In this document: positions 3,900-8,603 of the stretch, piece by piece | Position numbering within the stretch: the stretch's first letter is position 1 | Layout: each line of letters opens with the position of its first letter | IMG/VR virus record: IMGVR_UViG_2541047905_000009 | Reading direction: 5' to 3' (one strand) | DNA length: 8,603 bases | Origin: a virus | Lineage: Duplodnaviria > Heunggongvirae > Uroviricota > Caudoviricetes | Notes under the pieces: generated by a model | Told to the model about the DNA's origin: nothing | Database searches by the model: none | Seen by the model: the letters and a program-made list of their open reading frames with translations, nothing else | Position numbers and translations under genes: made by a program

Positions 3900-4733
3900 A
3901 TGAACATCGAAAAAAGCAGATTAATTTCTGAGGCCGCCCCTCATCTGAACGCCTCTCTGGGCACAATTAACGGTAATGAATTTGCCGCAATTGTCCCGGT
4001 TATTCCAGGTCACATCGGTGGGCGTGAAACCAATATTGTTAGCGCAAAAGCGTTACACAAAGCGTTGGGCGTGGGAAAAGACTTCTCTACATGGATCACT
4101 GATCGCATCTCTGAATATGACTTCACCATTGGGCACGATTACTCAGTCCATAAAACAATTTCCCCAAATTTGGGGAAAAGCCCGAATGGCACGGCTTACA
4201 GCAAGATTAAGCAGTCTGGCAGACCCGGCAAAGACTATCTGTTAAGTGTCGGAATGGCGAAAGAGCTGGCAATGATCGAACGCAATGATCAGGGTCGCGC
4301 TATCCGTCGTTATTTCATCCAGTGCGAGGAAGAATTACAGCGTAGCGTGCCTGAAATCGCCGCCCGCTATCGTCGCCAGCTAAAAGCCCGTATCAGTGCC
4401 GCAAACAACTTTAAGCCAATGTGCGATGCGCTGAATATGGCCCGTGCCGAGCAGGGGAAAACGACGCAGCAACACCACTACACAAACGAGAGCAATATGA
4501 TTTCTCGTATCGTTCTTGGAGGGCTAACTGCTAAGCAGTGGGCGCGGATAAATGGCTATTCTGGCGAACCTCGCGACCATATGAACGCAGAACAGCTTGA
4601 GCACCTCTCATATCTCGAAAGCACCAATATCACGTTAATTGATATGGGCATGGAATATGAGCAGCGCAAAGGAGAACTCACCCGCCTGTCGCAACGCTGG
4701 CTCGCCAAGCGTCTGGAGGCGGTCCATGTTTAA
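3900..4733 (+). CDS. phage antirepressor-like protein (AntA/ORF6N-type N-terminal domain), 277 aa
   Basis: N-terminal region (IGGRETNIVSAKALHKALGVGKDFSTWITDRISEYDF ... KDYLLSVGMAKELAMIERNDQGRAIRRYFIQCEEE) matches the characteristic AntA/Bro-N-type antirepressor signature ending in RRYFIxCE. C-terminal half unassigned. GGAGA lies 8 nt upstream of the ATG. Confidence 0.8.
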   Translation: MNIEKSRLISEAAPHLNASLGTINGNEFAAIVPVIPGHIGGRETNIVSAKALHKALGVGKDFSTWITDRISEYDFTIGHDYSVHKTISPNLGKSPNGTAYSKIKQSGRPGKDYLLSVGMAKELAMIERNDQGRAIRRYFIQCEEELQRSVPEIAARYRRQLKARISAANNFKPMCDALNMARAEQGKTTQQHHYTNESNMISRIVLGGLTAKQWARINGYSGEPRDHMNAEQLEHLSYLESTNITLIDMGMEYEQRKGELTRLSQRWLAKRLEAVHV

Positions 4734-4908
4734 GCCGACAGGAACACCACAACCTCAAAAACGCTACAAAGATGCCCACGGAGCACTCGTTACTGTCGAA
4801 AGCGTGTCTCACAACCGAGTGACGTTTTATCGCGACGGGTATCAATCGCCATGCGTACAACCGCTGGCGCGCTTCATGAAGGAGTTCGCGGAGGTTAACA
4901 AATGCTAA
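4726..4908 (+). CDS. small hypothetical protein, 60 aa ([60 protein letters not shown])
   Basis: ATG at 4726 is preceded by GGAGG (4715-4719) and overlaps the upstream stop (ATGTTTAA). The longer 4639 start in the ORF track lacks an RBS and gives an implausible N-terminus. Confidence 0.6.
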   Translation: MFKPTGTPQPQKRYKDAHGALVTVESVSHNRVTFYRDGYQSPCVQPLARFMKEFAEVNKC

Positions 4909-5930
4909 CCGTCCAGAAGAAGATATTTTCACTGACTGCTATGTCGCAAAAATCCAGCAATATGACAGCAAAGTCTGGCATTAATACAGCAGATACAAGC
5001 AAAGCTTATCATTTTATGGTGGTAGGAGCGGATGCCTTAACTATGTCAGAAATTACGGTCGATGGTGTTAGCGTTGAGAAGGTCAGCGGCTGCGCCAGAG
5101 AATTTCTGGTCGTAGATGACCTGTTCTGCTCGCGTAGTGACTCCACAAAAATCTTCGTCCGCACGCGCGACGTTAACGAAATGAGCGCGATGTACTGTGC
5201 CTCTGGTTCTTCCAATAGTGAGTTTTCGGAGTCCATAAAAAAGAGCTTGCCGTTATGCGGCAACACGGTTTATGGTTATAAGGCACCTCATAAAACGGGT
5301 GCCGGGATTAGGACCCCGCAGGCAATCGAGGCGATACATGACGCGCCAGCGTCTTTTTTTGTATCGGCGCACACGCACACCTTATCAATGGTGGGCTGTA
5401 TGGGGCTGACTTCGGTCAGGCTGGTTTCCTTGATTGCCAGTAGTCCTAACCCTGTACAGTCCACCGCCAGCGAGCTTAGGACCTCCGGCGGTGGCTATAA
5501 ACCATCAATCAAGGAGGCTGCCACATGCTGGCTACTACCCCTACCCAAAAACCGCAATTTATCTGGATTATCGCCGCAGTTCGCCGCGATTGCCCGACAA
5601 TTACCGCCAAAATTCATCATATTGCTGCCGAGTCTGAACGCGATGCTCGCCGTTCTCTGGTGCGCGATCACATCTGCTTTTTTGCTGGTCGTATCCGCAT
5701 GGAGGTGGCACATGATTAAAACCTACGATGTGCATATGGATCCCCTCGAACGCACAAGCCAGATCATCACACTGACAGAAGTGATTAACGACATTCTGGT
5801 GAGCAACTCTCCCTCACGAGACGAAAGACTGAAGGCGTTACTCGCGATATTGGATCTCGCCGTTCGTGACGTTCATTTCCTGCTGGAAGGTGGACAAATG
5901 CCATGCAAAACGGGGGCAACCAATGAATAA
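4902..5930 (+). CDS. uncertain: 342-codon open frame with strong RBS; 5' half plausibly coding, 3' extent unresolved (reads through other RBS-supported genes)
   Basis: ATG at 4902 has GGAGG 7 nt upstream and overlaps the previous stop (ATGCTAA). The frame has no stop until 5930, yet across 5525-5711 it is rich in rare CUA codons while another frame codes well. It contains a terminator-like hairpin. Coding status is ambiguous. Confidence 0.35.
5340..5360 (+). terminator. candidate intrinsic terminator / attenuator (GACGC-GCCA-GCGTC followed by T7)
   Basis: 5-bp GC-rich stem with a 4-nt loop, followed immediately by TTTTTTT (5354-5360), inside the long open frame and about 165 nt upstream of the next RBS. 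Confidence 0.4.
5406..5514 (+). ncRNA. candidate structured RNA / regulatory leader (UUCG-tetraloop hairpin, crossing stems, long-range stem overlapping the SD)
   Basis: Complementary segments read by eye: CTGAC-UUCG-GTCAG (5406-5419); GTCCTAA (5443-5449) with TTAGGAC (5476-5482); CCACCGCC (5461-5468) with GGCGGTGG (5487-5494), crossing the previous pair; CCTTGATTG (5428-5436) with CAATCAAGG (5506-5514), reaching into AAGGAGG. No folding energy was computed. Confidence 0.3.
5525..5719 (+). CDS. small protein, 64 aa, tentatively Icd-like (host cell-division inhibitor family of P4-like elements)
   Basis: Strong SD AAGGAGG 7 nt upstream of the ATG. Codon usage is good in this frame. [21 protein letters not shown]...[13 protein letters not shown] resembles, from memory, the FxW-FAAVRR...FAGR pattern of Icd-like proteins; this family call is low confidence. 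Confidence 0.55.
   Translation: MLATTPTQKPQFIWIIAAVRRDCPTITAKIHHIAAESERDARRSLVRDHICFFAGRIRMEVAHD
5712..5930 (+). CDS. small hypothetical protein, 72 aa (alternative reading: C-terminal part of the 4902 open frame)
   Basis: ATG at 5712 is preceded by GGAGG (5701-5705) and overlaps the stop of the 5525 gene (ATGATTAA). Translation [30 protein letters not shown]... is protein-like. Confidence 0.45.
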   Translation: MIKTYDVHMDPLERTSQIITLTEVINDILVSNSPSRDERLKALLAILDLAVRDVHFLLEGGQMPCKTGATNE

Positions 5931-6117
5931 CTCAATTAATACCCCTCGCCTTACGTCCGCACTTCAATTAATCGAGCAAGCAGCGGCTGTCCTGGTTGCT
6001 GTCAGTCTTTCGGCTGAAGAAATGGACGCTGCTGATGTCGTGGATGCGATTAAAGCGTGCTCATCTTTGGTTAACGATGCCCGTGCCGAGCTGGTAATTC
6101 TTGGGGGTGAAAAATGA
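5923..6117 (+). CDS. small hypothetical acidic protein, 64 aa
   Basis: ATG at 5923 overlaps the upstream stop (ATGAATAA), with a G-rich stretch upstream. The GTG at 5866 in the ORF track lacks an RBS. Confidence 0.55.
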   Translation: MNNSINTPRLTSALQLIEQAAAVLVAVSLSAEEMDAADVVDAIKACSSLVNDARAELVILGGEK

Positions 6118-6377
6118 ATATCAACTTAATTTATCGTCATCCGTGTGAGCTGGAAATTGAATCATTGCTGGGGCGCGAAGAGCCATATCCAGACACATTC
6201 ACTCCCGCAGATTGCGCGACTGAACGGCTTACCAGAGCGCGCACAGGTCTGGTTCATGTGATGAATGAGATTGTTCCCTCGGTGGGAGGGGAACAGGCGA
6301 CAGTAATCAATAGCTGGCTACAAAAAGTTACCTCCCTGATAGATATCGGTTTAATCGATGTGGAGAGTGCGAAATGA
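6114..6377 (+). CDS. small hypothetical protein, 87 aa
   Basis: ATG overlaps the upstream stop (ATGA), with GGGGGTG upstream. Translationally coupled. Confidence 0.6.
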   Translation: MNINLIYRHPCELEIESLLGREEPYPDTFTPADCATERLTRARTGLVHVMNEIVPSVGGEQATVINSWLQKVTSLIDIGLIDVESAK

Positions 6378-6595
6378 CCAACATCCAGCTCATTGAAGCG
6401 CAATGTCGCATCGAACAGGTTCAGACTGTTTTAGGGTTCTGGCTTGAAGGGGCCAGCCCCAGCAACAGAGACAAGTTAATGATTGGCGCGGTTATGTCAC
6501 TGCTCAATGGCGTACCAGAAGCTATTCAGGAAGCGGACGAATTGTTGGGCAAATATGAGTTACAGAATCATTCAGGCGAGGCGAAACATGAATAA
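6374..6595 (+). CDS. small hypothetical protein, 73 aa
   Basis: ATG overlaps the upstream stop (ATGA), with GGAGAG 6 nt upstream. Confidence 0.6.
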   Translation: MTNIQLIEAQCRIEQVQTVLGFWLEGASPSNRDKLMIGAVMSLLNGVPEAIQEADELLGKYELQNHSGEAKHE

Positions 6596-7190
6596 TTTCT
6601 TAACTTTCCATGCAGAAGCAACGCCTGACGGCGTAAACATCATGTACCGCAGCAACGATGGCATGACAGAACGCGTTGAGACCGTCTCATATATTGATGC
6701 CGTAAATCGTCTGGATGCCGGGGATTATGACGATAAACCAGATGAAGGCATGTTTATACATCTCGCTATTGCCAGTGGCGGCAACCAGGGATATTTCGAT
6801 TACACATCACAGCATCACGTGATTATGTGGCGCTGGCTGATAGCAACAGCATTCATCAATGAAATGAGAAAGGAAAACGGCACTGTCAGCATCATTGATG
6901 ATACTGGCAATCCTTCCGAAGTGGCTGTTTATTCCAACGGCATCGTCGCCATGCCGCTGTATCCAGTAGCAGAGCGCCTCGCTATGGCAAACAACATTGA
7001 GGGCGCGATGATAGAACGTTTTGGCATCGAGTCTGGCACAGAACGCGCCATCATTTTCTACAGAGCCATGATGGATGTGGAACAAGGAGCACTGACTCCA
7101 TTTGGTCGTGAAACGCTTGCTGAACTTCACAACAGCTTTATAGCTGAACTGAATGAAAACGGCATGCCAGCGGAACCAGTGACGCACTGA
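6588..7190 (+). CDS. hypothetical protein, 200 aa
   Basis: ATG at 6588 overlaps the upstream stop (ATGAATAA). The 6483 start in the ORF track would overlap the preceding gene by about 110 nt and gives a junk N-terminus. Protein-like composition. Confidence 0.65.
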   Translation: MNNFLTFHAEATPDGVNIMYRSNDGMTERVETVSYIDAVNRLDAGDYDDKPDEGMFIHLAIASGGNQGYFDYTSQHHVIMWRWLIATAFINEMRKENGTVSIIDDTGNPSEVAVYSNGIVAMPLYPVAERLAMANNIEGAMIERFGIESGTERAIIFYRAMMDVEQGALTPFGRETLAELHNSFIAELNENGMPAEPVTH

Positions 7191-7200
7191 GGATGGAGCC

Positions 7201-7542
7201 ATGATTACTAAAAATTTCCGACTGAATGCGCTGGCAAATAAGTATGCGTCAGCACTGTATAACCACATTACCTCCACCAGCGGCGGGGACTATTTCATGA
7301 TTGATGCGGACGGAGAGGCCGTCCGTGTGGAAATCGTCAATGGAGTAAAAGGCGTTCGCAGCCTGATCGATAGTTACGCACTGGCAGCCATGAAAGTGTT
7401 CTACCCGCAGTGGGAAACCGTGGGGATCGAGCTTCTTGATCGTTGCGTCACTAAGGACAGATTGACTGACGTCGGGCGTGAGATATGGCAAAGCATGGTT
7501 AATGACATGGGCGCAACTGTAGCGGGAGGTTCTCATGCGTGA
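7201..7542 (+). CDS. hypothetical protein, 113 aa
   Basis: GAGGA 6 nt upstream of the ATG; 10 nt after the upstream stop. Confidence 0.65.
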   Translation: MITKNFRLNALANKYASALYNHITSTSGGDYFMIDADGEAVRVEIVNGVKGVRSLIDSYALAAMKVFYPQWETVGIELLDRCVTKDRLTDVGREIWQSMVNDMGATVAGGSHA

Positions 7543-7906
7543 AAATGTAGAAATGGCGCTTAGCTCCGCAATCGGAGAGCAGGTGGCAAAGATTGCTGGT
7601 GCTGTGTGGATTCATAACCTTCATTCTACTGGTGAAGAGAAAATGGCAATTCAGACGCCAGAGGGACGCACCATTACTACATCTCTGAAGCCGTCAGATG
7701 TTTGTGATCTGATTTGCGCATTCATGTACCCAGCAATGAGGACTGTCCACGGCGATAAGTGGAAACTTGCGACAACCGCTGAATTTGATATGTGGCTAAA
7801 CAATGATGGCATGCTGACTGATTACGGAATAACCAAGTGGCAGATGCTAGTTAGCCATATCGCAAACGCTATAGACCACGTGGGGTACGGTGATGCGAAA
7901 CATTGA
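7535..7906 (+). CDS. hypothetical protein, 123 aa
   Basis: GGGAGG 5 nt upstream of the ATG; start overlaps the upstream gene by 8 nt. Confidence 0.65.
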   Translation: MRENVEMALSSAIGEQVAKIAGAVWIHNLHSTGEEKMAIQTPEGRTITTSLKPSDVCDLICAFMYPAMRTVHGDKWKLATTAEFDMWLNNDGMLTDYGITKWQMLVSHIANAIDHVGYGDAKH

Positions 7907-8384
7907 TCTTATCCGTCAGGTTATCAGTGCGTCTGAAAACAACTGGCCTCATGTGCTGGGCTGCCTGAACATAAATGTCCCTGACTCTCCGCGCCGTCAT
8001 GCTCCCTGCCCTGCATGTGGGGGCAAAGATCGATTCCGGTTCGATGACAACGGGCGCGGTAGCTTCATCTGTAATCAGTGCGGCGCTGGTGATGGGCTGG
8101 ATTTAATTAAACGCGTAAATAACTGCGACACAACAGAGGCGGCGCTTCTTGCCGCTGATGTTCTGGGTATTGATTACCGGACAACGGAAACACCAGAAGC
8201 CACCAGCCAGAAACGGGAACAACTGGAAACCGAGCGCCAGCGACGCGAACAGGAGCGCCTGAAAAGGGCAGAGAAGGACGAACAACAAAGACGGGATACG
8301 TTTTCCCGTCAGTTTGATGACATGCGCAGAAAGGCTGTAAACGGCAAATCTGATTATCTGGTTGCGAAAGGGGTAGGTGATTGA
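7893..8384 (+). pseudogene. DNA primase (P4 alpha / primase-helicase type), N-terminal zinc-ribbon fragment truncated by IS insertion
   Basis: CPACGGKDRFRFDDNGRGSFICNQCGAGDGLDLIKR is the CxxC...CxxC primase zinc-ribbon motif. The ORF ends after 163 residues (ATG 7893) at a TGA that is the first three bases of the IS terminal repeat (8382-8384). Full-length homologues are several hundred residues. Confidence 0.8.
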
Positions 8385-8603
8385 ACCGCCCCGGGTTTCC
8401 TGGAGAGTATTTTATCTGTGAACTCAGGCTGCCAGATCATCGTTTCCGATGGAAGCATAATAAGCTTTTTCTGCTTCTGCCGGAGGAGTATGGCCCAGCC
8501 TTTCCAGCAATCGTCGATTGTTATACCAGTCCACCCACGTGAGTGTGGCCAGTTCCACTTCTGCACGGTTTTTCCAGCTCTTACGGTGTATTACCTCCGC
8601 TTT
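8382..8603 (-). mobile_element. IS3-family insertion sequence, IS629-like, terminal part (partial; runs off window end)
   Basis: Terminus TGAACCGCCCCGGGTTTCCTGGAGAG recalled as the IS629/IS3411 terminal inverted repeat. An IS3-family transposase C-terminus is encoded on the - strand just inside. Confidence 0.8.
8424..8603 (-). CDS. IS3-family transposase OrfB, C-terminal 59 codons (partial, 5' end beyond window)
   Basis: Reverse-complement translation in frame with the window end: ...KAEVIHRKSWKNRAEVELATLTWVDWYNNRRLLERLGHTPPAEAEKAYYASIGNDDLAA*. This is the typical C-terminal tail of an rve-domain IS3-family transposase. The track ORF at 8354..8566 is in a different frame and is not the real gene. 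Confidence 0.8.
   Translation of the reverse strand, partial: KAEVIHRKSWKNRAEVELATLTWVDWYNNRRLLERLGHTPPAEAEKAYYASIGNDDLAA

Follow-up and report, generated by a model that had tools for sequence, protein, structure and literature searches.

How can an open reading frame (ORF) of 342 codons run without a stop through a transcription terminator and across two small genes that have ribosome binding sites (RBS) of their own? This question is raised by positions 4902-5930 of an 8,603-nucleotide stretch of viral DNA (Caudoviricetes; IMG/VR record IMGVR_UViG_2541047905_000009), all of which is hereafter called the window. Our answer, drawn by analogy, is that the ORF is the counterpart of the eta gene of phage P4, a read-through ORF laid over an immunity control region, in which the act of translation would matter and not the product. 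We give this reading a probability of about 0.7, taken jointly with the assignment of the window to a phage satellite integrated at thrW, an island of the phage-inducible chromosomal island (PICI)/P4-like kind resembling EcCIMP1. The elements on which the argument turns are the following.

4902..5930, + strand: eta-like read-through ORF of 342 codons with an ATG start, annotated 'ash family protein' (ORF listing and homologues)
4890..4904, + strand: coupled start of the long ORF, GGAGG at 4890-4894, 7 nucleotides (nt), ATG at 4902 (read from the sequence)
5247..5276, + strand: predicted internal sigma-70 promoter, equivalent of P4 PLE, -35 TTGCCG at 5247-5252 and -10 TATGGT at 5271-5276 (found by eye)
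5283..5359, + strand: leader small RNA (sRNA) of the IsrK / P4 seqA type (Rfam RF01394, 63 bits against a gathering threshold of 50, model positions 1-77 of 77)
5323..5331, + strand: seqA-like target CAATCGAGG, complementary to the C4 loop (9 contiguous pairs)
5340..5360, + strand: intrinsic terminator with a 5-bp GC-rich stem, a 4-nt loop and T7, which ends the leader sRNA
5384..5471, + strand: antisense immunity RNA of the C4 / P4 CI type (Rfam RF01695, 80.2 bits against a gathering threshold of 45, model positions 1-87 of 87)
5425..5436, + strand: specificity loop of C4, equivalent of seqB, TTTCCTTGATTG
5506..5517, + strand: seqC-like target CAATCAAGGAGG, overlapping the icd Shine-Dalgarno (SD) sequence (12 contiguous pairs with the loop)
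5525..5719, + strand: Icd/Kil-like gene, 64 amino acids (aa), with an AAGGAGG SD (NCBIfam NF033153, 70.4 bits against a cut-off of 25)
5712..5930, + strand: 72-aa gene with GGAGG before its ATG at 5712, lying in the long frame and forming the C-terminus of the long ORF

The sequence-only reading that preceded this work had described the stop-free frame with its GGAGG-N7-ATG start on top of the upstream stop, the terminator, the 64-aa ORF with AAGGAGG in another frame and the in-frame GGAGG-ATG at 5712, and every one of these was found again in the sequence. The ATG at 4902 overlaps the stop, TAA at 4906-4908, of the DUF4222 gene that precedes it, there is no stop in the long frame between 4896 and 5928, and the other two frames contain 19 and 29 stops within 4600-6200. 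From base composition, the chance of 342 open codons is about 8e-8, which excludes an ORF open by chance, and that of the first 127 codons being open is about 2e-3. As expected of an eta-like ORF, the frame starts upstream of the internal promoter, is coupled to the preceding gene and crosses seqA, the terminator, cI and seqC without a stop. It is not nested in the frame with kil/icd, and it does not end at the stop of that gene: the long frame is +1 to icd and its end lies 211 nt past the icd stop. Across 5525-5711 the long frame had been called nonsense-like, and its codon usage is indeed that of an off-frame reading, the mean log P per codon being -4.29, with the icd frame at -3.92; only such per-codon means were used, as the frame posterior is driven mainly by the presence or absence of stops. 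Both overprinted genes had been proposed to be real, and the data agree. The Icd-like protein is 41% identical to P4 Kil, and in the Klebsiella group the ratio of nonsynonymous to synonymous polymorphism (pN/pS) of the icd region is 0.28 in the icd frame vs 2.04 in the long frame. For the 72-aa gene, coupled to icd via an 8-nt overlap, the ratio is 0.50 in its own frame vs 0.91 and 1.84 in the others, and at one locus (L046) the gene stands separate and the long ORF stops at icd. By this substitution pattern, the 72-aa gene is real.

What the long frame crosses is an RNA-based immunity circuit of the P4 type. The proposal that the 5' part of the frame is non-coding RNA was borne out for 5283-5471 only, where the two Rfam matches lie. 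The IsrK match is of full length and ends in the terminator, whose stem GACGC-GCCA-GCGTC occupies 5340-5353 and is followed by T7 at 5354-5360. We take this terminator to be the counterpart of P4 t1, which Briani et al. in 2000 reportedly described as a CI-dependent intrinsic terminator between PLE and cI. The predicted internal promoter, with a +1 at about 5283, sits where the equivalent region lies in P4 eta; a simple promoter scan of the sequence did not call it at 5247-5276. For C4, the family assignment has the support of both the score and the structure, as 14 of 28 predicted pairs show double compensatory changes among 29 distinct homologous sequences. The loop of C4 is complementary to one site in the leader, directly upstream of the terminator stem, and to one site at the RBS of the first gene, as in P4-type immunity. 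Over 18 loop types, cognate seqA sites pair with the loop by a mean of 8.6 contiguous nt and non-cognate ones by 4.7, and the corresponding means for seqC are 10.2 and 5.5, such that loop, seqA and seqC co-vary three ways over 18 specificity types. None of 200 shuffles folds as well as the whole leader (z = -3.85), and in this fold seqA pairs in cis with the region of the loop. Judged by its elements, their complementarity and their covariation, the RNA circuit is real in this island.

The variation among E. coli islands (L002-L033) fits a circuit of this kind. C4 and its flanks, aligned to 5360-5524 of the window, are hypervariable, with 47-62% variable sites in islands that are otherwise 90-98% identical, whereas the promoter segment, the second-least variable, has 3% variable sites and icd 2%. 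A variable C4 beside a near-fixed promoter and icd is the pattern expected of an immunity-specificity cassette, and the segment looks like a recombining one. There are at least 18 immunity specificities in the 12-nt loop and its two targets; we found no description in the literature of the extent of this loop/seqA/seqC series. As a separate observation, the C4 DNA pattern matches two or three times in some viral contigs (L112, L091, L093, L135, L163, L180 and L185), three times in L112, with spacings of about 656 nt in L112, L091 and L093 and of about 2.6 kb in L135.

The known system closest to this configuration is the left-operon immunity region of P4 (eta/kil, PLE, seqA, t1, cI, seqC, timm; Forti et al. 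1999; Sabbattini et al. 1995; Briani et al. 2000). In the P4 record (NC_001609), an ORF with an ATGA overlap on the ORF88/vis stop, eta (8767..8168, 199 aa), contains an isrK match (8692-8615) and a C4 match (8507-8420), and its C-terminus is the 65-aa Kil. One review (PMC10111431) states, citing Forti et al. 1999, that a constitutive promoter lies inside eta and that CI/seqA interactions end its transcript, yielding CI RNA; that Kil is a truncated Eta, full-length Eta being made only from the upstream late promoter and coupled to an alpA homologue; and that translation of Eta prevents termination. For PICIs, the same review already places homologues of CI and seqA within 'Bro' genes. P4 and the window share the ORF coupled to an upstream stop, the internal promoter (predicted here), the isrK-type leader with seqA and terminator, the C4-type CI RNA, seqC on the RBS of a Kil/Icd homologue, and a downstream replication operon ending in primase. 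They differ in that eta is in frame with kil, whereas the ORF of the window lies +1 to icd and runs on to the end of the following gene; in the DNA before IsrK, 381 nt in the window against 74 in P4, the former carrying a P22-type pac fragment; in the gap between terminator and C4, 24 nt against 107; and in the downstream gene, which in the window is not epsilon. P4 eta/kil with its CI RNA is thus a known kind of element, and the element of the window belongs to it, in an EcCIMP1-like island beside proA.

If the window works as P4 does, then in the quiescent island the internal promoter would make short transcripts from which C4 RNA is processed. Pairing of C4 with seqA would favour termination at the T7 hairpin, and pairing with seqC would block icd translation and expose the RNA to termination, such that the replication operon, small genes followed by primase, stays off; in P4-type immunity the premature termination brought about by pairing involves t1, t4 and the Rho-dependent timm. 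When the upstream operon of alpA, antirepressor and DUF4222 genes is on, ribosomes would enter the long ORF by translational coupling and cross the leader, the terminator hairpin, C4 and seqC. Their passage would prevent hairpin formation, antisense pairing and Rho loading, and the upstream transcripts would escape immunity and reach the replication genes. Earlier it had been considered that transcripts ending at the terminator might give a non-stop mRNA as what the gene normally makes; the homology to P4 and IsrK points away from this, the T7 terminator being expected to end the leader sRNA made from the internal promoter.

An eta-like role predicts that the frame, more than its sequence, is kept among relatives. 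These were gathered in a protein-alignment set (11 loci from species-representative genomes and 45 from IMG/VR, retrieved with the long-ORF alignment), an annotated set of 8 loci (of which 7 come from E. coli genomes and one is the phage P4 record), and a protein-independent set of 120 IMG/VR loci retrieved with a fixed DNA pattern from the C4 core, in which the statistics on openness refer to 32 icd-linked modules. In the first two sets together, exactly one long frame of 137-418 codons passes through C4 in 64 of 64 loci and it is always the same one relative to C4; the other two frames through C4 are short (7-120 codons). In the pattern set, the open frame begins at least 77 nt before the IsrK start in 30 of the 32 icd-linked modules, the other 2 being closed. 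The uninterrupted arrangement recurs in Escherichia, Klebsiella, Pluralibacter, Enterobacter and Lonsdalea and in phage P4.

The DNA upstream of the RNAs is where the frame is kept open over changing sequence. In most related loci the first ATG follows GGAGG and overlaps the stop of the upstream ORF (ATGA or ATGCTAA), whichever ORF that is, as it varies by lineage (DUF4222, an AntA-like gene, a vis-like gene and others). The DNA from this start to the promoter measures 74 to 557 nt and belongs to at least four unrelated sequence families. No N-terminal family has a stop in the long frame, each of the two other forward frames has 0-9 (5-9 for the three larger families), and the composition-based probability of being open ranges from 8e-4 to 6e-2 per family. 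The gaps between IsrK and C4 also vary (about 21, 24, 48, 62 and 107 nt) and the frame is open across all of them; as the IsrK and C4 ends come from nhmmer envelopes accurate only to +/-1 nt, exact mod-3 distances are not derivable from these gaps. Five Stx-phage (Oslovirus-type) prophages offer a comparison, since in them a nearly identical IsrK-C4 cassette precedes a Rha gene. In all five there is no coupled upstream start, and the frame is closed at or near the 5' end of IsrK by stops lying from 48 nt before to 29 nt after its start, which argues that RNA constraints alone do not force upstream openness; they may explain openness across C4 itself. The Stx-phage contrast is made narrower by the non-icd contexts of the pattern sample, most of which are also open upstream. 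Taken together, the comparisons establish, at the level of sequence, a conserved, coupled and sequence-indifferent open frame and its relation to icd and the 72-aa gene. The trick of P4, an ORF held open so that ribosomes erase an RNA-based immunity signal, appears to be general and evolvable in enterobacterial satellites.

Two single loci depart from the continuous frame: in L033 (3649-3867) a frameshift variant makes the long frame join the icd frame about 20 codons into icd, and in L055 (3123-3184) two ORFs, still joined by a start-to-stop overlap, take the place of the long one. Neither variant loses translation coverage.

Several points weigh against the eta-like reading. That the long frame is translated, that the internal promoter is active, that C4 is processed and that antitermination takes place are all assumptions carried over from P4. 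The C4 stretch is open also in the Stx-phage relatives that have no upstream start, and openness there may be inherited and not selected. Across icd, taken singly, an open frame is nothing unusual (synonymous resampling gives P = 0.24) and by itself is no evidence of selection. The loci are phylogenetically related, so that truly independent events are fewer than the counts suggest. The N-terminal part shows, in the E. coli group, a pN/pS of 0.50 (0.32 for the DUF4222 control) and gene-like codon usage, and some protein-level role for it is possible. The primase of this particular island is cut by an insertion sequence (IS) element, and the circuit may be idle here.

Some of these points would suit an explanation in which the ORF is untranslated and accidental: structured GC-rich RNAs and an overlapped gene would happen to lack stops, and gene callers and Pfam would have made a family of the result. 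The openness of C4 in lambdoid prophages lacking the upstream start and that of icd (P = 0.24) are what it expects, and so are an Ash domain that coincides with the non-coding RNAs and a product with neither amino-acid constraint nor a predicted fold, both described below. It accounts poorly for the 127 open codons upstream of the RNAs, for the at least four non-homologous upstream stretches that are all stop-free, for the SD and ATG overlapping the upstream stop in most loci, for the frame kept open through IsrK-C4 indels and for its closure near the IsrK 5' end in the five Stx-phage prophages; we regard it as unlikely. As main explanation, a purely spurious ORF had been dropped on the 310-334-aa ORFs of Klebsiella and Pluralibacter and on the frame statistics.

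If the frame is translated, is its product a protein in the usual sense? When the long 'Ash' ORFs of E. coli, Klebsiella and Pluralibacter are aligned, conservation is confined to three parts: the first dozen residues, the promoter-IsrK-C4 stretch, and the part in which Icd is mirrored out of frame, together with the gene downstream. About 90-100 N-terminal residues cannot be aligned between genera, and residues 1-127 have no Pfam or PHROG match. In the Klebsiella family the N-terminal part has a pN/pS of 0.94 in the long frame by Nei-Gojobori counts, which are noisy, as the antA control showed no clear frame. These counts were used instead of a codon-position test, which is underpowered in the E. 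coli group (11/11/11 for the DUF4222 control); variable sites in C4 fall 16/12/15 by codon position, with no third-position bias. AlphaFold2, run on a 46-sequence alignment, gave a mean predicted local distance difference test (pLDDT) score of 33.7; residues 1-286 were below 50, values of 50 or more occurred only at residue 287 and at 291-317, and the part of the 72-aa gene alone reaches 50-59. The 342-aa product is probably not a protein in the usual sense. An alternative would be a genuine regulatory protein of the 'Ash'/Bro network that folds and acts, for example as a regulator or antirepressor, with the RNAs merely embedded in its gene. Pfam, PGAP and PHROG do treat the ORF as a protein family, it is conserved as an ORF across genera, and the E. 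coli N-terminal part is under the gene-like constraint mentioned above. Its conserved residues, on the other hand, fall on the promoter, the RNA helices and the out-of-frame icd, the Klebsiella ratios of 0.94 and 2.04 show no constraint in the long frame, and the unalignable N-terminus, the low pLDDT and the evenly spread C4 variants all speak against a folded product, which leaves this alternative with a still smaller share of our belief than the accidental ORF. That homologues might show one 342-aa protein conserved along its length, as had been anticipated for a single real gene, came true for the open frame and failed for the protein sequence.

The 'Ash' family itself is an image of the RNAs. 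In E. coli A20, whose copy is identical (100%), the NCBI annotation pipeline (PGAP) places a single coding sequence (CDS), WP_024192463.1 'ash family protein', with no icd and no 72-aa gene, as had been foreseen for gene finders; other genomes have a 355-aa version, or a 'partial' ash with a separate icd. Pfam PF10554 (Phage_ASH) matches residues 124-219 with 54.3 bits against a cut-off of 26, which is 5271-5558 of the window, so the 'Ash domain' is a translation of promoter, IsrK, C4 and the icd SD. On P4 Eta the model covers residues 22-146 (8330-8704 of the P4 locus, L008), the seqA/cI region. The Phage_ASH match is, on this positional evidence, a sign of the RNA module and not of a protein fold. 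We found no description in the literature of the Pfam Ash model as the image of an RNA module. The model has been used as a marker for P4 epsilon, under the words 'Ash, also called epsilon' (PMC8628076). P4 epsilon is of a different family (PF25738) and PF10554 matches Eta, not epsilon, such that surveys with this marker detect the immunity RNA module and not the derepression protein. Pfam, PGAP and PHROG file the region as a protein family, 'transcriptional repressor/regulator'; the 'repressor' label could be traced to the old P4 'cI gene product' CDS, and the CI repressor function is now assigned to RNA (PMC4825925), a further point against the genuine protein. With one protein annotated, the Icd-like and 72-aa genes go unseen, as do two regulatory RNAs, and to P4 specialists the present finding will be an annotation correction more than a surprise.

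Two annotation effects were seen at other loci. In the Stx-type prophages L007 (2116-2889) and L068 (1618-2403), the Rha-family regulator is annotated from an ATG inside C4, and an SD-supported ATG lies about 170 nt downstream of the annotated start; calling the start inside C4 produces an artificial 'Phage_ASH + Phage_pRha' domain architecture. In L002 (1700-2731) and L004 (1700-2956), PGAP marks 'ash' as an incomplete pseudogene, the frame there being open over 343 and 418 codons, and the 72-aa gene is left unannotated between icd and the next CDS.

Such flags bear on a last alternative, which the sequence-only reading had raised, namely that the gene starting at 4902 lost its stop by frameshift, pseudogenisation or sequencing error and became fused to what follows. 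The island copy looks partly decayed, with the IS element in its primase, PGAP calls 'ash' partial in some genomes, and L033 and L055 do carry internal frameshifts. A local lesion is nevertheless very improbable: the identical sequence is present in an independent complete genome, the same uninterrupted frame occurs in hundreds of genomes from several genera (the five named above among them), and P4 itself has the uninterrupted arrangement. A homologue with a shorter 'intact' gene and an in-frame stop near 5400-5520, which would have indicated a lesion, was not found, the two closed outliers among the 32 loci aside.

The eta-like frame is not arranged everywhere in the same way with respect to icd, and at least two frame architectures exist, linked to a difference of one base in a spacer. 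In the P4 type, icd/kil is read in the long frame, which closes at the icd/kil stop, and 138 or 135 nt separate the C4 ATG from that of icd. The window type has 137 nt between these two ATGs. With one base fewer in the spacer from C4 to the icd ATG than P4-type loci have, the long frame of the window becomes +1, overprints icd without a stop and fuses to the 72-aa gene; frames of this type extend 172, 211 or 868 nt into the next gene. The 30 open icd-linked modules of the pattern set comprise 21 of the in-frame type and 9 of the +1 type. The frame split can be read directly from PHROG 6928, a profile derived from the P4-type fusion, which is matched in the window by two ORFs, the long one at profile positions 31-149 and the separate Icd ORF at 138-194. 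Stops in the +1 frame across icd are absent in 28 of 29 distinct +1-type sequences and present in 12 of 19 in-frame types, most of them arising from a Trp-Leu-Ile string (TGG CTG ATT) where +1 types have Trp-Ile-Ile. That stop avoidance follows architecture is suggestive only, given that the clades are related and that the openness of a single +1 sequence has P = 0.24. We found no description of the +1 architecture, or of its one-base spacer difference, in the literature.

It is tempting to see the one-base spacer as a selected switch and not a neutral variant, a tentative idea that we hold to be rather improbable. The P4 type would yield an Eta-Kil fusion from late transcripts, and the window type would bypass Icd and give the 72-aa product as a C-terminal fusion, a segment of 1 kb being read as DNA, as RNA and in two protein frames. 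If true, the DNA layer would consist of the packaging signal and the promoter, and the RNA layer of the leader sRNA with its terminator and the antisense RNA; a ribosome-escort ORF, free to vary in sequence, would hold this multi-reading segment together. The cell-division inhibitor would then not be made from induced transcripts, and, speculatively, the +1 arrangement would spare the cell Icd during induction.

Other systems resemble the window in part. In the immI region of P1/P7 (c4, icd, ant), as would be the case in the window, a C4-family RNA processed from a transcript represses that transcript, with the RBS of an Icd-like first gene as target; downstream, P1 has an antirepressor where the window has a replication operon. 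We know of no eta-like overprinting ORF described for P1. In the IsrK-orf45-anrP locus of Gifsy-1 (Hershko-Shalev et al. 2016, PMC4825925), IsrK, called a structural homologue of P4 SeqA (PMC4825925), is an sRNA that ends at a leaky terminator, much as the leader of the window is expected to end at its own; the RBS of the read-through mRNA is masked by alternative structures and there is a processed downstream RNA, STnc1160 (PMC4825925). That locus differs from the window in belonging to a lambdoid prophage and in having a Rha-type antirepressor downstream. EcCIMP1, an E. coli PICI by proA that is mobilised by the P22-like phage Kapi1 (PMC11773190), shares with the window its neighbourhood and its gene set of integrase, AlpA, antirepressor, 'Ash family protein' and primase, and the likeness was drawn on these two grounds. 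The EcCIMP1 paper treats Ash as a protein (PMC11773190), unlike the RNA-module reading proposed here.

A further feature of the window lies in the part of the long ORF that precedes the promoter.

5050..5156, - strand: captured 107-bp piece of gene 3, the small-terminase gene of the P22 type, 92.5% identical to P22 and running antisense to the long ORF

This fragment ends exactly at the annotated P22 pac site, with a pac-like 22-mer at 5135-5156 in which 17 of 22 bases match, and part of the N-terminus of the long ORF is therefore the antisense of a terminase gene. Its core TAGTGACTCCACAAAAA is invariant in 17 island variants, and the flanks are variable. The fragment could be the signal by which EcCIMP1-type islands are packaged with the help of Kapi1 or other P22-like phages. 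No such signal is reported in the EcCIMP1 paper (PMC11773190), and the fragment is a practical lead on how P22-like helpers package such islands.

The layout of the window resembles that of a tRNA-integrated satellite, and the neighbours of the long ORF that were assigned coordinates are these.

1-1254: proA
1369-1444: tRNA-Thr(CGT)
3900-4733: AntA-type antirepressor
4726..4908, + strand: DUF4222 gene, upstream of the long ORF (Pfam PF13973, 87 bits; a PGAP CDS in the identical copy)

The full order is proA, tRNA-Thr(CGT), a tyrosine integrase, an alpA-like gene, a 143-aa ORF, the AntA-type antirepressor, the DUF4222 gene and the long ORF, with a run of small overlapping ORFs and then a TOPRIM/DUF927 primase on its 3' side. 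The order of the tRNA, int, alpA-like, antA-like and primase genes is compatible with a PICI/P4-like satellite, and an IS element ends the window before any late or packaging zone. The E. coli A20 copy is base-for-base identical to the window over 4700 to 7848. The primase ORF is truncated by the IS element to 164 aa, and this island copy is for that reason probably replication-defective. Its gene matches E. coli A20 up to about 8380, after which the sequence enters TGAACCGCCCCGGGTTTCCTGGAGAG... (window 8381-8603), the end of an IS3-family element inside the primase, with the C-terminus of the transposase on the minus strand; we take the element to be IS629/IS1203-like.

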